A DNA stretch of 25,842 bases from a virus (taxonomy: Duplodnaviria > Caudoviricetes), in IMG/VR virus record IMGVR_UViG_3300020176_000084, positions 1-25,842 of that record, one strand, 5' to 3'. Within the stretch, counting starts at the first letter, position 1, and the number at the start of each line of letters is the position of its first letter. Both the position numbers and the translations under genes were made by a program. A model generated the notes under the pieces. It was not told where the DNA came from. It did not search any database and was given only the letters and a program-made list of their open reading frames with translations. This document shows positions 223 to 15,057 of the stretch, one piece after another.

Positions 223-967
223 TGAAACGCCGGGTATCGGGCACAACGAACCACCTGTCGAGATGACGCCTTTCGAGGCCATCAAGGCCGAAATCAATGG
301 GCTCTACGACGAAGCCCTTGGGTGGTGCGATGGCGAGCCGGTCGAGAACCAAGGGCAAGCTGACGGGCTCGGCGAACTCATGAACCTTATCCGTGACGCT
401 TCGGGACGGGCCGACGCGCTCCGAAAAAAGGAGAACGAGCCCTTCGATCAAGGCAAGGCGGAAGTTCAGGCTCGATACGCGCCGTTGATCGCGGACACGA
501 AATCAACCAAAGGGAAAACGGTTCTAGCGGTCGACGCCTGCAAGAAAGCCCTCGCGCCGTGGCTCCACAAGCTTGATGAGGAAATGCGCGCCAAGGAAGC
601 CGCCGCCCGTGAAGAAGCGGAGCGCTTGCGGAAAGAAGCCGAGGAAGCCATCGCCATGGCGGATTCGGACAACCTTGCCGCCCGCGCCGATGCCGAGAGC
701 CGCATCAACGACGCCAAGGAAGCCGAGAAGGTTGTCGCCAGGGCCGCGAAGGATAAGGCCGGCGCTTCTGGTGGCGTAGGGCGCGCGGTCACTCTCCGCA
801 CCTTCTATCGCGGCGAAATCACCGACGCCACCGCCGTTGCCAAGCACTATTGGCTGACCAACCGCGCCGAGGTGATGGCGTTTTTTCAAACCCTCGTGGA
901 CGCCGACGTGCGGGCTAAGCGCCCCGTGCCGGGAGTGACCGTCCATGCAGAAAAGAAGGCGGCTTGA
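212..967 (+). CDS. Coiled-coil phage protein of the recombination module
   Basis: 251 aa, Ala/Glu/Lys-rich helical sequence, N-terminal IGHNxPP motif, directly upstream of the annealing protein. Confidence 0.8.
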   Translation: MPHDETPGIGHNEPPVEMTPFEAIKAEINGLYDEALGWCDGEPVENQGQADGLGELMNLIRDASGRADALRKKENEPFDQGKAEVQARYAPLIADTKSTKGKTVLAVDACKKALAPWLHKLDEEMRAKEAAAREEAERLRKEAEEAIAMADSDNLAARADAESRINDAKEAEKVVARAAKDKAGASGGVGRAVTLRTFYRGEITDATAVAKHYWLTNRAEVMAFFQTLVDADVRAKRPVPGVTVHAEKKAA

Positions 968-969
968 TA

Positions 970-1755
970 ATGCCATTTACCGAAGAAATCACCGCAAACC
1001 TCTCCGCCGGACTCGATAAGGCCTATGTCAAGCAGCGTCAGCAGGGCGGCGCGCGCCTTTCCTACGTCGAAGCGTGGCATGTCATCGCCGAAGCCAATCG
1101 GATCTTCGGGTTTGACGGATGGGCACGGGAAACCGTGATCCTTCAGGAAACCAATCGCGACCTGAAAGAACTCAAAGGCCAAAACAGCACCTATGAACAA
1201 TGGCGTGTCGGCTACATGGCAAAAGTTCGCATCACGGCCCACGGTGTTGTCCGTGAAGGCACCGGGTTTGGCATTGGAATGGGGCGCCCCGAAGCCTTGG
1301 GCGACGCCATCGAATCCGCCGTCAAGGAAGCGGAGTCCGACGCGATGAAGCGCGCGATGATGACGTTCGGGCATCCGTTTGGGCTGGCCTTGTACGACAA
1401 ATCGCAATCGAACGTGGTTGACAGCCCGCAAGAGCCGAAGCCCAAACCTCAAGCGGAACACACGCCCTTCGACGATGACAAGCCCGACCCCGTAGCGGAA
1501 TGGGCCAACAAGAACTGGACCGCCGACAAGCTCGACGTGCGCCAAATGGGGCTACCCGACGAAAAGCTGGCTGGCGCGCTCAAGAACATGGCGGCTTACG
1601 CCCCGACCATCCAGCGGTTGGACGAACTCTGGGCTCTGAATGCCGCCTATCACGGCTGGTTAAGCGCGAACAACGAAGATGCATTCGCGTCCATTAAAGC
1701 CGCCTTCGCCAACCGCAAAGGCTTTCTCTCACAAGAGCCCGCCAAGGCGGCATAG
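970..1755 (+). CDS. Rad52/Rad22-family (Sak-like) single-strand annealing protein
   Basis: Motifs LSYVEAWHVIAEANRIFGFDGW, VREGTGFG and AVKEAESDAMKRAMMTFGHPFGLALYDK. Confidence 0.92.
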   Translation: MPFTEEITANLSAGLDKAYVKQRQQGGARLSYVEAWHVIAEANRIFGFDGWARETVILQETNRDLKELKGQNSTYEQWRVGYMAKVRITAHGVVREGTGFGIGMGRPEALGDAIESAVKEAESDAMKRAMMTFGHPFGLALYDKSQSNVVDSPQEPKPKPQAEHTPFDDDKPDPVAEWANKNWTADKLDVRQMGLPDEKLAGALKNMAAYAPTIQRLDELWALNAAYHGWLSANNEDAFASIKAAFANRKGFLSQEPAKAA

Positions 1756-3704: not shown

Positions 3705-4064
3705 ATGGCTGACACCCCTACCCCGGAAATGGTCGAGCGCGTTGCGCGAGCGATTTGCCTGAACCGCGGCGGCCAATGCGATTGCCACGATGCAGGAAGT
3801 TGCTTCGCGCTGTCCGAACATCTCTTGACTGAAAGCAACCCGACCTTTCATCAAGCTCGCGCCGCCATCAAGGCCATGCTGGAGCCTACCGAAGTGATGG
3901 TCGCCGCCGCCGCCCCCGCCCACGAGGGGGAGCGAATTATGCACAAAGTCGCCTACCGTCTCATGATCGACGCCGCCCTATCCGAGACACCCATGCCAGA
4001 GGGCTTGCCGACCGGCGACACGATCTTTGGCGGCGATGGTCAGAAGACGGACACCAGCAAATGA
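3705..4064 (+). CDS. Phage hypothetical protein
   Basis: GGGAGA RBS; EMVERVARAI...ARAAIKAMLEPTEVM...YRLMIDAAL pattern common in alphaproteobacterial phage early regions. Confidence 0.75.
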   Translation: MADTPTPEMVERVARAICLNRGGQCDCHDAGSCFALSEHLLTESNPTFHQARAAIKAMLEPTEVMVAAAAPAHEGERIMHKVAYRLMIDAALSETPMPEGLPTGDTIFGGDGQKTDTSK

Positions 4065-4504
4065 CACTCGCGACTGTGCCGCTGTCACTCAAAGAGGCCA
4101 ACGAATTTGTGCGCGCACACCATCGACATCACGCCCCGGTGGTCGGCCACAAGTTCTCTATCGGTGCCGCGCTGGGCGACGCGATTGTCGGAGTAGCGAT
4201 CATCGGACGCCCTGTTTCGCGCCACCGTGACGACGGCCTCACGCTTGAGGTCACGCGCCTTTGCACGGACGGCACGCGGAACGCTTGCTCTTTCCTATAC
4301 GGGGCATCTTGGCGCGCGGCCAAGGCGCTAGGATTCAAAAAACTCGGAACCTACACGACGCCAGAAGAAGGCGGGGCCAGTTTACGCGGCGCTGGGTGGC
4401 GTCTGGTTGCCGAGACGCCGGGGCGCAGTTGGTCGGTTCAATCTCGTCCGCGCGTGGATACGCACCCTCTCGGGCAAAAACTTCTTTGGGAAGTCGAAGC
4501 ATGA
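4061..4504 (+). CDS. XF1762-family protein (Mom-like GNAT fold, putative DNA modification)
   Basis: EANEFVRAHHRHH, GVAIIGRPVSR, LEVTRLCTDGTRNACSFLYGA, YTTPEEGGASLRGAGW. Confidence 0.88.
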   Translation: MTLATVPLSLKEANEFVRAHHRHHAPVVGHKFSIGAALGDAIVGVAIIGRPVSRHRDDGLTLEVTRLCTDGTRNACSFLYGASWRAAKALGFKKLGTYTTPEEGGASLRGAGWRLVAETPGRSWSVQSRPRVDTHPLGQKLLWEVEA

Positions 4505-6172: not shown

Positions 6173-6262
6173 ACATCACCCCCGAAAACCGCACGAAACC
6201 GCGATTGTTACCAACCGCTTGATGACGATAGCGGCGGGTACGTTACGGGAACATTCGGCATT

Positions 6263-6283
6263 TGCACCCAAATTGCACCCAAA
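6263..6283 (+). repeat. Integrase arm-type sites, right pair (TGCACCCAAA x2)
   Basis: Direct repeats at 6263-6272 and 6274-6283, identical to the left pair. Confidence 0.75.
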
Positions 6284-6339
6284 TGCCCGCCACACGGCCT
6301 CAATGGGTTAGGGCGGAAGTTGGAAATGGGGGTGGCGTC

Positions 6340-7113
6340 GTGAGGACTATATCCTGGTTTTCATGCGGCGCTGCGAGCGCTGTCGCCACAAAACTCTCCT
6401 CCCCCGATGTCGTGGCCTATTGCCATACCGGAGCCGAGCATGAAGACAACGCTCGGTTTATGGCTGACTGTGCGGCTTGGTTCGGGCAAGAAATCACTAT
6501 TCTAAAGTCCGAAATCTACGCCGACACTTGGGACGTGTGGGAACGCCGAAAATATCTAGCGGGCGTCGCCGGGGCGCCCTGCACGCTGGAATTGAAGGTC
6601 AAGCCCCGCCTCGCCTTTGAGCGCCCCGACGACCTCCATGTTTTCGGCTACACCTATGATCAGCGCGACATCGCCCGCGCCGAGGCGCTTGTCGAACACT
6701 ATCCGGATCTGCAACTAAAATTTCCATTGATCGAGCAACAACTCTCAAAAGCAGCGTGCTTAGACATGGTTGGCCGTGCTGGCATTCAACCGCCACTGAC
6801 ATATGCGCTTGGATTCCCCAATGCCAACTGTCTCCCATGCGTCAAAGCGACGAGCCCCGCCTATTGGGCCTTAGTTCGGCAAGAGTTCCCGGATCGTTTC
6901 GCTCGCATGGTTAAAATCTCCCGAGAGCTAGGCGTAAAGCTAACCAGAATCAAAGGCGTCCGAAGCTTCATTGACGAAATTCCACCCGACCACCCCGTCA
7001 CCCAGCCGATAGCGCCCGATTGCGATTTCCTATGCTCGCTCGTGGAACAAGATATGGCGGAGACCGTCACCGACCAGTCGCCGGGATTAGAAAAGATTGG
7101 GGGTGGGGAATGA
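6340..7113 (+). CDS. PAPS-reductase-like / PP-loop adenine nucleotide alpha-hydrolase family protein
   Basis: N-terminal WFSCGAASAVA PP-loop, APCTLELKVKPR, NANCLPCVK and terminal CDFLC cysteines; GTG start. Confidence 0.85.
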   Translation: MRTISWFSCGAASAVATKLSSPDVVAYCHTGAEHEDNARFMADCAAWFGQEITILKSEIYADTWDVWERRKYLAGVAGAPCTLELKVKPRLAFERPDDLHVFGYTYDQRDIARAEALVEHYPDLQLKFPLIEQQLSKAACLDMVGRAGIQPPLTYALGFPNANCLPCVKATSPAYWALVRQEFPDRFARMVKISRELGVKLTRIKGVRSFIDEIPPDHPVTQPIAPDCDFLCSLVEQDMAETVTDQSPGLEKIGGGE

Positions 7114-7984: not shown

Positions 7985-8113
7985 ATGCGGATCTTGATCT
8001 TGTTGATGGCGGTGATCGCGGCTCCGGCATGGGCGTCTGATCCGCTTGACGGCATCACGATCCGACCCGATTGCGCCTCGCCAGCCTATGACCGCAAGAT
8101 GGCGGGCTGTTGA
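7985..8113 (+). pseudogene. Short or truncated secreted protein (42 aa, signal peptide)
   Basis: MRILILLMAVIAAPAWA signal peptide, GGGAG RBS, TGGTATAAT extended -10 at 7951-7959. Confidence 0.45.
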
Positions 8114-8343
8114 CCTCCCTCACCCTCTCAGACCTTGCTCAAGATCCGGTCGAGATCCGTTGCCGCCGTTGCGAGCGACATGGCCGGTACTACAAGGCCA
8201 CGCTAGCGGCCCTGGAGGGCGTGGAACCCGGCACCGCCCTTCCCGATATAGCCAACGCTATTGCGCAAGCTAGGTGCGCTGACTGGTCGGAGCTTGGGAA
8301 CAAGCGATGCGCTGTCTACTTCGTGGAGTTGGCCTTGAAGTGA
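8110..8343 (+). CDS. Small Cys-rich (Zn-ribbon-like) hypothetical protein
   Basis: TLSDL...VEIRCRRCERHGRY...C...C.VYF pattern typical of a small alphaproteobacterial family. Confidence 0.65.
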   Translation: MTSLTLSDLAQDPVEIRCRRCERHGRYYKATLAALEGVEPGTALPDIANAIAQARCADWSELGNKRCAVYFVELALK

Positions 8344-8976: not shown

Positions 8977-9219
8977 TCAGGCATCGACGGATGTAAAAAG
9001 TTGGCCCGACAACACCAAACCTTCACGGATGGCGACCACCTTGTTCTCTGCATCGCTCTGGTCGTACGCCCAAATATCGATACCGTAGCGGTCGCGGCCC
9101 ATCTCATATTCGGCCATGAACCGATATAACGGACGGCCATATTCATCGCGTCGAACGTTCTCGGGGTCCGGCGCTTCGCGCTGATTTCGCATGACGCCAA
9201 GATCAATAACTTCAGACAT
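8977..9219 (-). CDS. Hypothetical protein (MSEVIDLG...)
   Basis: GGAGGG RBS lies within the displaced endolysin 3'-end copy; the start overlaps that copy's last codons. Confidence 0.7.
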   Translation of the reverse strand: MSEVIDLGVMRNQREAPDPENVRRDEYGRPLYRFMAEYEMGRDRYGIDIWAYDQSDAENKVVAIREGLVLSGQLFTSVDA

Positions 9220-9224
9220 GTTTG

Positions 9225-9299
9225 CCCTCCAGATAGTCCGCCTCTTTCCTCCGGCGCGTTGGATAAACGTCTCCAAAATCACGAAGCTCTCGGACCACG
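9225..9299 (-). repeat. Displaced duplicate of the endolysin 3' end (copy 1 of a 75-bp direct repeat)
   Basis: 70/75 identity with 10206-10280; reads VVRELRDFGDVYPTRRRKEADYLEG, then KHV*. Confidence 0.92.
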
Positions 9300-9398
9300 G
9301 CGGGACGGATTTTACGGACGGCTTTTGCAACAGGGTTTCGCATTGTGGCCTCCGTCTAACATCCGTCTAACAAAAATCGTGCGGGCGTCACTTTTCCC

Positions 9399-9431
9399 AT
9401 TGCAATTAGGAACAAGGTTCCTATATATAAT
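9399..9431 (+). promoter_or_regulatory. Sigma70-like promoter with palindromic operator TAGGAAC-N3-GTTCCTA
   Basis: TTGCAA at 9400-9405, CTATATATAAT at 9421-9431, and a perfect 7-bp inverted repeat at 9407-9423 between them. Confidence 0.75.
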
Positions 9432-9463
9432 GTGTAGACAGAGACACCAAACGGGAGATAGAC

Positions 9464-9727
9464 ATGAAAGCGGAATCCAAATTGGCCGCAGCGTTTCGCA
9501 CTATAATCCGCCGCGAAATCCCCGCGACCGACCTAGTTCACATCGACACGATGAACCGCGACGGCTATGTGGGTTGCGCCACCCACGAGCACATCGACGC
9601 GAACCAAGCCATGCTCGAAGCGTGGGAGGTTGCGTTTGGTCGTGAGCCTGACTTAACCGACGACGACCTTGATACAATGAACACCGCTTGGGATATCGCT
9701 ATTAAAACCGGATACGCGGAAGCCTGA
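9464..9727 (+). CDS. Small acidic protein, candidate anti-defence/anti-CRISPR
   Basis: 87 aa with 17 D/E vs 8 K/R; strong GGGAGA RBS; first gene of the moron operon. Function is inferred only. Confidence 0.75.
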   Translation: MKAESKLAAAFRTIIRREIPATDLVHIDTMNRDGYVGCATHEHIDANQAMLEAWEVAFGREPDLTDDDLDTMNTAWDIAIKTGYAEA

Positions 9728-9799
9728 CATTCACCTGACCCCGCGCTCGGTCCACGCGAGGTCTAGTGAGTACCAAACCAACCAAACGGGAGAGACGAG

Positions 9800-9994
9800 A
9801 TGGAAATCACCCTCACAAGTTTCGCGACCGAAACCAAAATGACCATCCGCAACTTGCCGGAAGGCGCGGAAGAAAAGGTGGAGGACCGCGAAAGCGACGG
9901 CAATCCTCGGTACGGGGTTTGGGTGAACTTTGAAGATGTTTGGATGGGCGATGATTTTGACGATGCCATTGACGTGATCAAATCGCACCTCTGA
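9800..9994 (+). CDS. Small acidic protein, candidate anti-defence/DNA mimic
   Basis: 64 aa with 16 D/E vs 6 K/R; A/C-rich leader and GGGAGA RBS. Function is inferred only. Confidence 0.75.
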   Translation: MEITLTSFATETKMTIRNLPEGAEEKVEDRESDGNPRYGVWVNFEDVWMGDDFDDAIDVIKSHL

Positions 9995-10022
9995 CATTCA
10001 TCAAGCCAATGGAAACCACGAA

Positions 10023-10217
10023 ATGACCAGTATTGAGTTCAGATCATGGCGCGCGGCGATGGGCTGGACACAGGCCCGCGCCGGGGACGCGCTTGGAGTG
10101 ACCGGACGTGCCGTGCGAATGTGGGAAGCCGGCGACCGGCGCGTTCCCGAAACCGTCAGCAAACTATGCGCGCTGCTAGCTAGGGATAATGCGGATCAGG
10201 CCGTTCCCTCCAGATAG
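10023..10217 (+). CDS. XRE-family helix-turn-helix regulator (Aca-like position)
   Basis: FRSWRAAMGWTQARAGDALGVTGRAVRMWEAGDRRVP is a classic HTH_3 pattern. Confidence 0.88.
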   Translation: MTSIEFRSWRAAMGWTQARAGDALGVTGRAVRMWEAGDRRVPETVSKLCALLARDNADQAVPSR

Positions 10218-10759
10218 TCCGCCTCTTTCCCCCGGCGCGTTGGATAGGCGTCTCCAAAATCACGAAGCTCTCGGATTACGTCGCCCCATCGCCCTGCCGT
10301 GGCGTAACTCCAAAACGTCGGGCACCGCTTCCACGGTGTCCCGTATTGCCAAGCAACGGACATGATAACGGTCTGCTCTCGGTCGCTTAGATCGTCCCAC
10401 ATAGCGCCGTGGTTCACGCTGGTGGCGGCGTTCCATCGGTTTTCGACGGTCTTGGTGAAATCGGCGCGGAGGCAATTGTCAAGTTCGGCGACATGCGCCT
10501 CTCCCAGGACTAGGGGCCGCTCATTCAGCAAGGCCACTGCCGCCTCACCCTTCACCCCGCAATAAGGCCGGATCATCTCCAACGTCGCCTCGTGGATTGC
10601 CAATCGTTGCCAGTCCGATGCCGACCGCTGCCCAAGATCCACGCCACTCGCGATCGTCACGCCGGACTTGCCGAGTGGCTTGCCGTCTTTGTCCAGGGGC
10701 ACATAGCCCGTGGCAACCGCCGCGCCCTCAAGTTCTTCGATGAAGTGCCAGTTGATCAT
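10196..10759 (-). CDS. Endolysin, pesticin-like muramidase (T4-lysozyme fold)
   Basis: FIEELEG...GYVP...KSGVTIASGVDLGQ, QTVIMSVAWQYG and ELRDFGDAYPTRR.KEADYL; AGGAG RBS. Confidence 0.88.
   Translation of the reverse strand: MINWHFIEELEGAAVATGYVPLDKDGKPLGKSGVTIASGVDLGQRSASDWQRLAIHEATLEMIRPYCGVKGEAAVALLNERPLVLGEAHVAELDNCLRADFTKTVENRWNAATSVNHGAMWDDLSDREQTVIMSVAWQYGTPWKRCPTFWSYATAGRWGDVIRELRDFGDAYPTRRGKEADYLEGTA
10206..10280 (-). repeat. Copy 2 of the 75-bp repeat (current endolysin 3' end)
   Basis: 981 bp from copy 1, with 5 mismatches. Confidence 0.92.
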
Positions 10760-11846: not shown

Positions 11847-11948
11847 GCCGCCCTCCATATTGTTATATAGATATGTTTTACACACATCATGTGGCACGCA
11901 AGCACCAACCCACTTGCGGAATCAATTCGGCATCGCCATGTTGGACAA

Positions 11949-12107
11949 ATGCCGCCAGAAAAGAAATTCGACGCACAAATCCACCTGACCATCGCAACCG
12001 AGATGCTGAAGCGGGTCGATGAGTGGCGTGCGAAACAGCCGGACGTGCCGAACCGGTCAGAGGCCATCCGGCGATTGGTAGATCTCGGGCTATCCGACGA
12101 TGAGTGA
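11949..12107 (+). CDS. Ribbon-helix-helix (CopG/Arc-like) regulator
   Basis: IHLTIATEMLKRVDEWRAKQPDVPNRSEAIRRLVDLGL. Confidence 0.85.
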   Translation: MPPEKKFDAQIHLTIATEMLKRVDEWRAKQPDVPNRSEAIRRLVDLGLSDDE

Positions 12108-12285
12108 GGCCTTCACGATCGCCGCCGGCGTGCTGCTCGCCAATTTACTGACCGCGATGTTTCTCTTCGGATGCTATCAACTTCGAGGCCTTTCCGTGGA
12201 TGAAGCCGGGGAAAAGCTCGTTGCCCTGGGGTGTATGGCATTTCCATTAATATGGGTCGCAGTCATGCTTATGGTCGCCGCCTGA
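12100..12285 (+). CDS. Small 2-TM membrane protein (moron)
   Basis: Two hydrophobic helices; overlaps the RHH stop. Confidence 0.65.
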   Translation: MSEAFTIAAGVLLANLLTAMFLFGCYQLRGLSVDEAGEKLVALGCMAFPLIWVAVMLMVAA

Positions 12286-14691: not shown

Positions 14692-15057
14692 ATGCGCACC
14701 TTGATCACCCTCGCACTTTTGCTCCTCGCCGCGCCCGCCATCGCAGATGATCTGTTCTCCAAGACGGAACTGCGGTGTGAGTTTAAGTTCGGCGGGAAAT
14801 GGAATTTTATCAAACACCCCCCACAACTCGATCCACTTCCCGCTCGGTCAATAAGGCTTCATTCTATTGATTTGCCGGCGCAAAATGCCCATTCTGGACC
14901 GAAATTCGATACGCCTTTGAGCGCTTTCAAAGGAAATCGAACAATCACGTTCGTAAGAAAAGACGTGATCTTGACTGTTTTCGCTGACGAAGGGATGGCC
15001 GGGCACCCTGCCCTTTACAACAACGTTGAAGTTGATCGCGCCGGGTTCTGTCGCTAA
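14692..15057 (+). CDS. Secreted/periplasmic moron protein
   Basis: Signal peptide MRTLITLALLLLAAPAIA; opposite strand between ejection genes; more AT-rich than its flanks. Confidence 0.7.
   Translation: MRTLITLALLLLAAPAIADDLFSKTELRCEFKFGGKWNFIKHPPQLDPLPARSIRLHSIDLPAQNAHSGPKFDTPLSAFKGNRTITFVRKDVILTVFADEGMAGHPALYNNVEVDRAGFCR

Follow-up and report, generated by a model that had tools for sequence, protein, structure and literature searches.

The window analysed here, a 25,842-nucleotide stretch of marine phage DNA, carries in its late region a three-gene unit that we read, at a probability of roughly 0.6, as an acquired operon of the acr-aca type, in which a terminal helix-turn-helix (HTH) protein would use an Aca1-type palindrome to repress its own promoter, and ORF1 and ORF2, the genes ahead of it, would encode inhibitors of host defence. 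That the HTH protein represses this promoter is very probable, a counter-defence role for at least one of the two ORFs is somewhat better than an even bet, and anti-CRISPR activity specifically is improbable. The architecture as such is already known; what is new is a non-Aca1 regulator on an Aca1-type operator, the shuffling of cargo bounded by linkers and a widespread protein family that can be tested. An acr-aca-like operon had been proposed in an earlier prediction from the sequence alone (hereafter the original prediction). Its account of the regulation holds up, with an operator shared with acr loci and an HTH orthologue, and for the cargo we found no Acr match.

An antisense operon inserted at the endolysin

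The phage is temperate and podovirus-like, and a sequencing-run search places the runs that contain the whole stretch in salt marsh. Its plus strand carries a Rad52-like recombinase, an SSB and an integrase-like gene (with a weak Pfam match) and its minus strand the virion and lysis genes, the virion proteins having their nearest matches at 28–36% identity. All three ORFs of the unit lie on the plus strand, against the minus-strand lysis and structural genes, which agrees with the antisense unit first proposed, and they have the layout of acr-aca loci, with small genes followed by a terminal small HTH gene on one strand (Table 1). As had been described, ORF1 (87 aa, pI 4.5) and ORF2 (64 aa, pI 4.2) are small and acidic and each follows a strong ribosome-binding site (RBS), GGGAG, compared with only GGAAA before the HTH gene. 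The 64-aa HTH protein passes the Pfam cut-offs for HTH_3 and HTH_31, bearing out its assignment to the XRE type.

Table 1. Features of the cassette and its surroundings, in window coordinates
Feature	Position	Strand	Basis
Rad52/Sak-like recombinase	964..1755	+	PF04098, E=8e-36
80-aa gene	8977..9219	-	directly after endolysin in cassette-free L228, L229
43-aa ORF, GGAGG RBS, foreign N-terminus in frame with orphan endolysin end	9212..9343	-	translation
Left repeat copy, native endolysin 3′ end left behind	9225..9302	-	92% to 10206-10283
Inferred promoter, -35 TTGCAA (9400-9405), 16 nt, -10 TATATA (9422-9427)	9400..9431	+	likeness to aca promoters
Aca1-type operator palindrome, 7-3-7 TAGGAAC-AAG-GTTCCTA	9407..9423	.	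one base per arm from Aca1 IR2
13-nt leader including RBS	9446..9458	+	exact repeat at 9781-9793 before ORF2
ORF1, 87 aa, all-helical, uncharacterised family phrog_21393	9464..9727	+	exhaustive protein search
Linker hairpin, 39 nt, directly 3′ of ORF1 stop	9731..9769	+	related copies in three phages
ORF2, 64 aa, acidic singleton, predicted small beta-sheet and C-terminal helix (low confidence)	9800..9994	+	model
XRE-type HTH, predicted Aca-like autorepressor, 64 aa, pI 10.5	10023..10217	+	HTH_3/HTH_31
Pesticin-type phage endolysin, insertion target	10196..10759	-	PF16754, E=8.5e-36
Right repeat copy, 3′ end now completing endolysin	10206..10283	-	78-nt repeat

The cassette is a 981-bp insertion at the 3′ end of the endolysin gene, flanked by a direct repeat of 78 nt whose copies are 92% identical. 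Window positions 9212–9289, on the left side, are 98.7% identical to the intact endolysin end of a cassette-free relative, L234. The cassette-free relatives (L228/L229, also returned as L232/L233, and L234, L236 and L237) have a single copy of the repeat and endolysins 82–95% identical to that of the window. In a more distant relative, L235 (endolysin 66%), the alignment runs without a break from the endolysin into an orthologous HTH gene, and the site has five other small cargo genes together with a related promoter. On the simplest reading, the endolysin gene would have recombined with a donor arranged like L235, from which it gained a new 3′ end, and the old end stayed in place; PMC3945230 reports that exchanges of this kind are driven by Rad52-like recombinases.

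On the left, the 43-aa ORF that contains the orphan endolysin end has no Pfam match; its stop codon overlaps the start codon, ATG, of the late gene that follows, and it may keep translational coupling. On the right, the HTH gene and the endolysin stop overlap by 22 nt. The empty-site and donor-type relatives provide an unusually clear record of how an operon entered a lysis module with the endolysin left intact. The acrIF1-aca1 operon of JBD30 is also inserted among late genes; the window unit differs from it in being antisense, with an endolysin duplication at its flanks, and in cargo that is not a known Acr. In metatranscriptome contigs from three runs, cassette and flanks have similarly low depth, which is uninformative on expression or strand, and a joint that skips the cassette was found in none of four runs examined.

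Several further features of this region deserve mention. The insertion with its endolysin duplication, like the linker hairpin and the ORF1 family described below, was no part of the original prediction. A 10-nt direct repeat at 9352–9372 (two copies 11 nt apart) closely precedes the RBS of the 43-aa minus-strand ORF and might serve a divergent promoter as a binding site. L234 (1691–1950), L236 and L237 have a third allele, in which the endolysin is followed by a gene for a 77-aa protein with CxxC motifs and then by a repeat of about 15 nt of the endolysin end. The 3′ end of the endolysin gene seems to be a hotspot for insertion. Beyond 8330, the cassette-free L228 has a different integrase and a different 165-aa gene (L228:5511–6008), so the right-hand region is also mosaic.

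A palindromic operator shared with acr loci

As had been proposed, the palindrome lies between the −35 and −10 elements, after TTGCAA and overlapping TATATA (an alternative −10, TATAAT, lies at 9426–9431). A strict sigma-70 scan listed no promoter at the cassette, so the promoter is assigned by its likeness to aca promoters; palindromes of this size number 12 in the window, against 15.1 ± 3.5 in 20 shuffles, and are not rare alone, so the meaning of this one rests on its conservation elsewhere. Both elements, for these reasons, needed comparative support. According to PMC8633003, Aca1 IR2 reads TAGGCAC-AAT-GTGCCTA, with both G bases contacted by R44 and R47, and the JBD30 acrIF1-aca1 operon described there likewise places a 7-3-7 operator between its −35 and −10, differing from that of the window by one base in each arm. 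The acrIC7-acrIC6-aca10 promoter, given in PMC9410881 as TTGCAA-N16-TATTCT, has the same −35 and spacing as that of the window.

We scanned viral contigs for the exact window palindrome and obtained 74 stretches, corresponding to 57 distinct oriented contexts. An upstream TTG hexamer is present in 20 of the 57, and 16 of these 20 have a same-strand HTH gene downstream (15/19 minus the window's own copy); the 16 include the window's own phage and L144/L224, a member of the seed of our HTH profile. Without the hexamer, a same-strand HTH gene follows in none of 37 contexts, and in four of them an HTH gene lies on the opposite side, with a −35 on that strand. The operator-linked HTH proteins are mostly Aca1-like (L144 versus Aca1, E=1e-11), and these loci are not independent because about half carry near-identical Aca1 proteins. 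The first gene behind an identical operator is an AcrIF2 homologue in L170, L177 and L191 (PF25704 above cut-off; PDB E=2e-25) and AcrIE3 in L168 (E=1e-33). Judged by sequence comparison, the window palindrome is an Aca1-type operator, an inverted repeat over the promoter that is conserved with its regulator as at acr-aca loci. Such an address does not prove function, since most Aca-operator genes lack an assigned function in PMC13551039.

The pattern has exceptions. The left arm of the operator is degenerate in L235, which has the closest HTH; in L242 and L245 the operator is degenerate too, and their operons show no HTH gene in the sequence examined; and L139 has the operator but a Cro-like HTH without the arginine pair. 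A promoter-plus-operator scan added four matches, of which L142 and L143 led to no operon. On the single contig of L198/L199, two near-identical promoters with the window operator stand 1.4 kb apart, with one Aca10-like HTH fused to an extra domain between them, likely a single regulator for two operons.

A putative regulator outside the Aca1 family

The terminal HTH protein is predicted to be Aca-like in action and is not Aca1 by sequence. Aligned by eye, Aca1 R22, S31, Q32, S42, R44 and R47 correspond to R7, T16, Q17, T27, R29 and R32 of the window HTH, which on this mapping combines an R-x-x-R recognition helix with its Aca1-type operator. The window thus resembles JBD30 acrIF1-aca1, as described in PMC8633003, in a terminal HTH with phosphate-binding and GG-reading residues; unlike JBD30 Aca1, the window HTH is without the loop insertion. 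By sequence homology it falls outside the Aca1 family, with no Aca1 among its PDB sequence matches at E ≤ 0.1, no BLAST alignment to the Aca1 homologue of L171 and a path to Aca1 only through a profile that includes an Aca1-like member.

The sole Aca match in a direct PDB search is Aca10, at a non-significant E=0.074. Q22, R34 and R44 of Aca10 (PDB 7XI5) align with Q17, R29 and R39, but the dimer-interface G49 is not kept and the 21-bp IR2 operator of Aca10 differs from that of the window (PMC9410881); on E value and operator, the window HTH does not belong to the Aca10 family either. When the HTH profile was compared with known structures, Aca1, Aca3 and Aca10 held five of the first six places. 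A word-index protein search with the HTH returned the window's own protein only.

The neighbourhoods of HTH homologues vary as the original prediction would have it. The L235 orthologue (61% identity) stands behind a related promoter and unrelated cargo, and cargo also varies upstream of related HTH genes in L158 and L002, as at acr-aca loci. A similar recognition helix and the same operator core occur together in L158 (53% identity to the window HTH, with the same operator), L002 (45%) and L198. The core is absent at eight HTH-homologue loci, seven of which (L003, L145–L148, L150 and L151) have other helices and one of which (L004) has a similar recognition helix. If a non-Aca1 HTH does act on an Aca1-type operator, then operators are shared between Aca families that sequence sets apart, and cross-repression would be possible.

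Linker hairpins and the exchange of cargo

Conservation extends from the promoter into the leader, with window positions 9409–9458 being 88% identical to the promoter and 5′ leader of L235. The 13-nt leader has two exact copies in the window and one one-mismatch match elsewhere (shuffle mean 0.03), and ORF1 and ORF2 have it in common together with a 10-nt tail. The hairpin of the cassette 5′ UTR is weak (z 0.01); the sequence is nonetheless kept in L235. A promoter/terminator scan found no plus-strand terminator downstream of the cassette toward the endolysin.

Between ORF1 and ORF2, the linker hairpin has related copies in L235 (two), L242 and L245. Its fold is matched by 9 of 500 shuffles, and in the alignment of the copies 93.8% of the cells of its 13 pairs are paired, compared with 30–40% in slid controls. 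Two pairs are changed on both sides, a covariation value that 20 of 500 shuffles reached, in a small sample of five copies (four distinct over the hairpin) in which both double changes are peculiar to the window copy. Rfam held no credible family match for the hairpin, and 10 of the 13 matches of a hairpin scan are neither the window's phage nor true copies.

In these alignments the linker hairpin marks the site of a cargo swap. L242 and L235 are 98% identical over the first cargo gene and the hairpin and diverge at the hairpin end, and L242 and L245 have the promoter and last gene in common and differ in the middle, where two hairpin types, set in the same flanking frame, have exchanged places. 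The second hairpin type has a different stem and the flanking frame of the window's (L242:3208–3267, L245:2169–2230). Four related operons already hold about ten distinct unannotated cargo genes, and the operator, the HTH and the linker offer three sequence handles for defence-inhibitor candidates outside Pseudomonas-type hosts.

The hairpin may be bound by the HTH, be processed or simply be a conserved recombination substrate. It resembles the Aca-bound RNA hairpins of 5′ UTRs and intergenic regions in PMC13551039 in being conserved, between cargo genes and before an RBS; compared with the descriptions in that source, it differs in being 39 nt long and repeated as a linker where the cargo changes. 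In PeSL cassettes of T4-type phages, small non-essential genes are separated by repeated stem-loops at which recombination shuffles them (PMC2839356), and the linker is likewise a repeated stem-loop at cargo boundaries. PeSLs each have a promoter and a terminator, however, according to that source, whereas the window linkers show neither on the plus strand, with no U-tail, and belong to a single operon under operator control, in a temperate podovirus-like phage. We rejected the linker as an integron attC site, as the attC core does not fit the window copy.

ORF1 and ORF2

Both acidic proteins had been called orphans, which is right for ORF2, a singleton, and wrong for ORF1, for which an exhaustive search found 411 representatives at E ≤ 0.001 (a word-index search gave the window's own protein only). 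Of 83 aligned members, 80 match phrog_21393, whose function is unknown. Members stand alone, are duplicated or form a domain of proteins of up to 3,871 aa, and they occur in phages and in genomes of several phyla. D45 is invariant in the alignment, and F11, N31, C38, H41, N47, M50, A53, A75 and W76 are at least 90% conserved. The predicted structure (pLDDT 96.7) has no sequence match in the PDB and no Foldseek fold match there; BFVD yielded two uncharacterised phage proteins of the same fold only, and a VIA fold search gave a best Z of 5.2, with Ocr at a background Z of 3.7. This absence of a fold match does not show a new fold, and a homodimer prediction, at a score of 0.02, gives no answer either way. 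With its conserved polar motif C38/H41/D45/N47, ORF1 may be a ligand-binding or catalytic inhibitor; a ligand or metal binder or a small enzyme directed against widely shared defence chemistry seems more likely than a DNA mimic. With more than 400 clusters, a confident model and an obvious site to mutate, the family is directly testable.

Using an HTH profile seeded outside the ORF1-family loci, we found an Aca-like HTH downstream, on the same strand and within 2.1 kb, at 11 of 112 distinct loci (adjacent at five) and in the other three positions at 1, 0 and 1; the link is absent at 101 of the 112. Nearby same-strand ORFs in viral ORF1 loci are mostly small, 75% of 386 being under 150 aa by a crude caller. 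PAPS reductases and DNA methylases recur beside ORF1-family genes, and PAPS reductases are also present in Aca-regulated operons in PMC13551039. Our literature search returned no description of the ORF1 motif, of its phrog number or of linker-shuffled anti-defence operons, a result from which subscription journals and the supplements of PMC13551039 may differ.

For ORF2, no relatives emerged from any search run, the word-index search giving the window's own protein only, and Foldseek found no match with its pLDDT-66 model as the query. ORF2 resembles Acr-like protein inhibitors in its size, its charge and its rarity.

Competing functions and a working model

Neither ORF is recognisable as a known Acr, as the original prediction had already stated: Pfam, NCBIfam and PDB sequence and fold searches, in libraries that contain some Acrs only, gave no match of either to known Acr or anti-defence proteins. 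This bears on the possibility, which we think unlikely, that the unit is a true anti-CRISPR operon in which one or both ORFs block a Cas complex, like AcrIF2 and AcrIE3. Homologues of those two inhibitors stand behind the identical operator, both ORFs are small and acidic, and ORF2 is a singleton, but no Acr similarity of either ORF is seen in sequence or fold, Pfam Acr families are absent from the 150 ORF1-family neighbours scanned (of 346), and ORF1 is conserved across phyla and occurs as a domain of large proteins. Such deep conservation and domain-in-large-protein occurrence are atypical of Acrs.

It is similarly doubtful that the unit is an autoregulated moron for superinfection exclusion, inter-phage competition or host takeover instead of counter-defence. 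It has its own promoter, sits amid the lysis genes and is missing in sister phages, the phage has its integrase-like gene (the Pfam match being weak), and Aca-regulated genes may include factors against superinfecting phages according to PMC13551039; yet neither ORF has evident membrane or secretion features or matches a PADLOC model, and a self-silencing operon would fit a transient burst better than lasting protection of a lysogen.

A more ambitious reading, which as a joint claim we consider unlikely, would see a family of phage operons as small integrase-free cassette arrays, each under a single operator and repressor of the Aca type, with linkers that serve at once as RNA control sites and recombination junctions. 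The units of such an array would be anti-defence cargo bounded by conserved hairpins, and ORF1 would represent a new inhibitor class, widespread, with an unsolved helical fold and a Cys/His/Asp/Asn site. A HigBA-like toxin-antitoxin module, with the toxin upstream, an HTH antitoxin last and a palindromic operator, is very improbable: the gene order agrees, the HTH has sub-cut-off matches to MqsA and Y4mF antitoxin models and HigA chains are among its profile matches, but neither acidic protein encoded upstream matches a toxin family, the orthologous HTH stands behind unrelated cargo where HigBA or MqsRA modules would have a RelE-like toxin fixed to the antitoxin, and Aca proteins predominate among the closest structural relatives of the HTH profile.

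Under the preferred reading of a self-repressing counter-defence operon, we envision that the cassette promoter, served by the host polymerase, would fire on phage DNA entry and give a burst of both cargo proteins. The HTH protein, translated weakly, would then dimerise, read the GG of each half-site with R29 and R32 and close a promoter that would otherwise run antisense into the endolysin. For the exchange of cargo, the likely route would be recombination between conserved stretches (promoter/leader, linker and HTH/endolysin), with the phage's Rad52-like recombinase as the probable agent.

Other accessory genes in the window

A second antisense pair lies in the late region (11889–12285, plus strand) and encodes an RHH-like regulator, which matches phrog_4738 at E=5e-9, and a 61-aa hydrophobic ORF; Aca14 is of the RHH type in PMC13551039. 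Lone antisense genes among the late genes at 14692–15057 and 8110–8343 (both plus strand), with weak family matches or none, are probable further morons. Elsewhere, the window has a Mom-like gene with a weak Pfam match (4061–4504) and an ORF that is PAPS-reductase-like by eye and has no Pfam match (6262–7113), both possibly serving anti-restriction through DNA modification.
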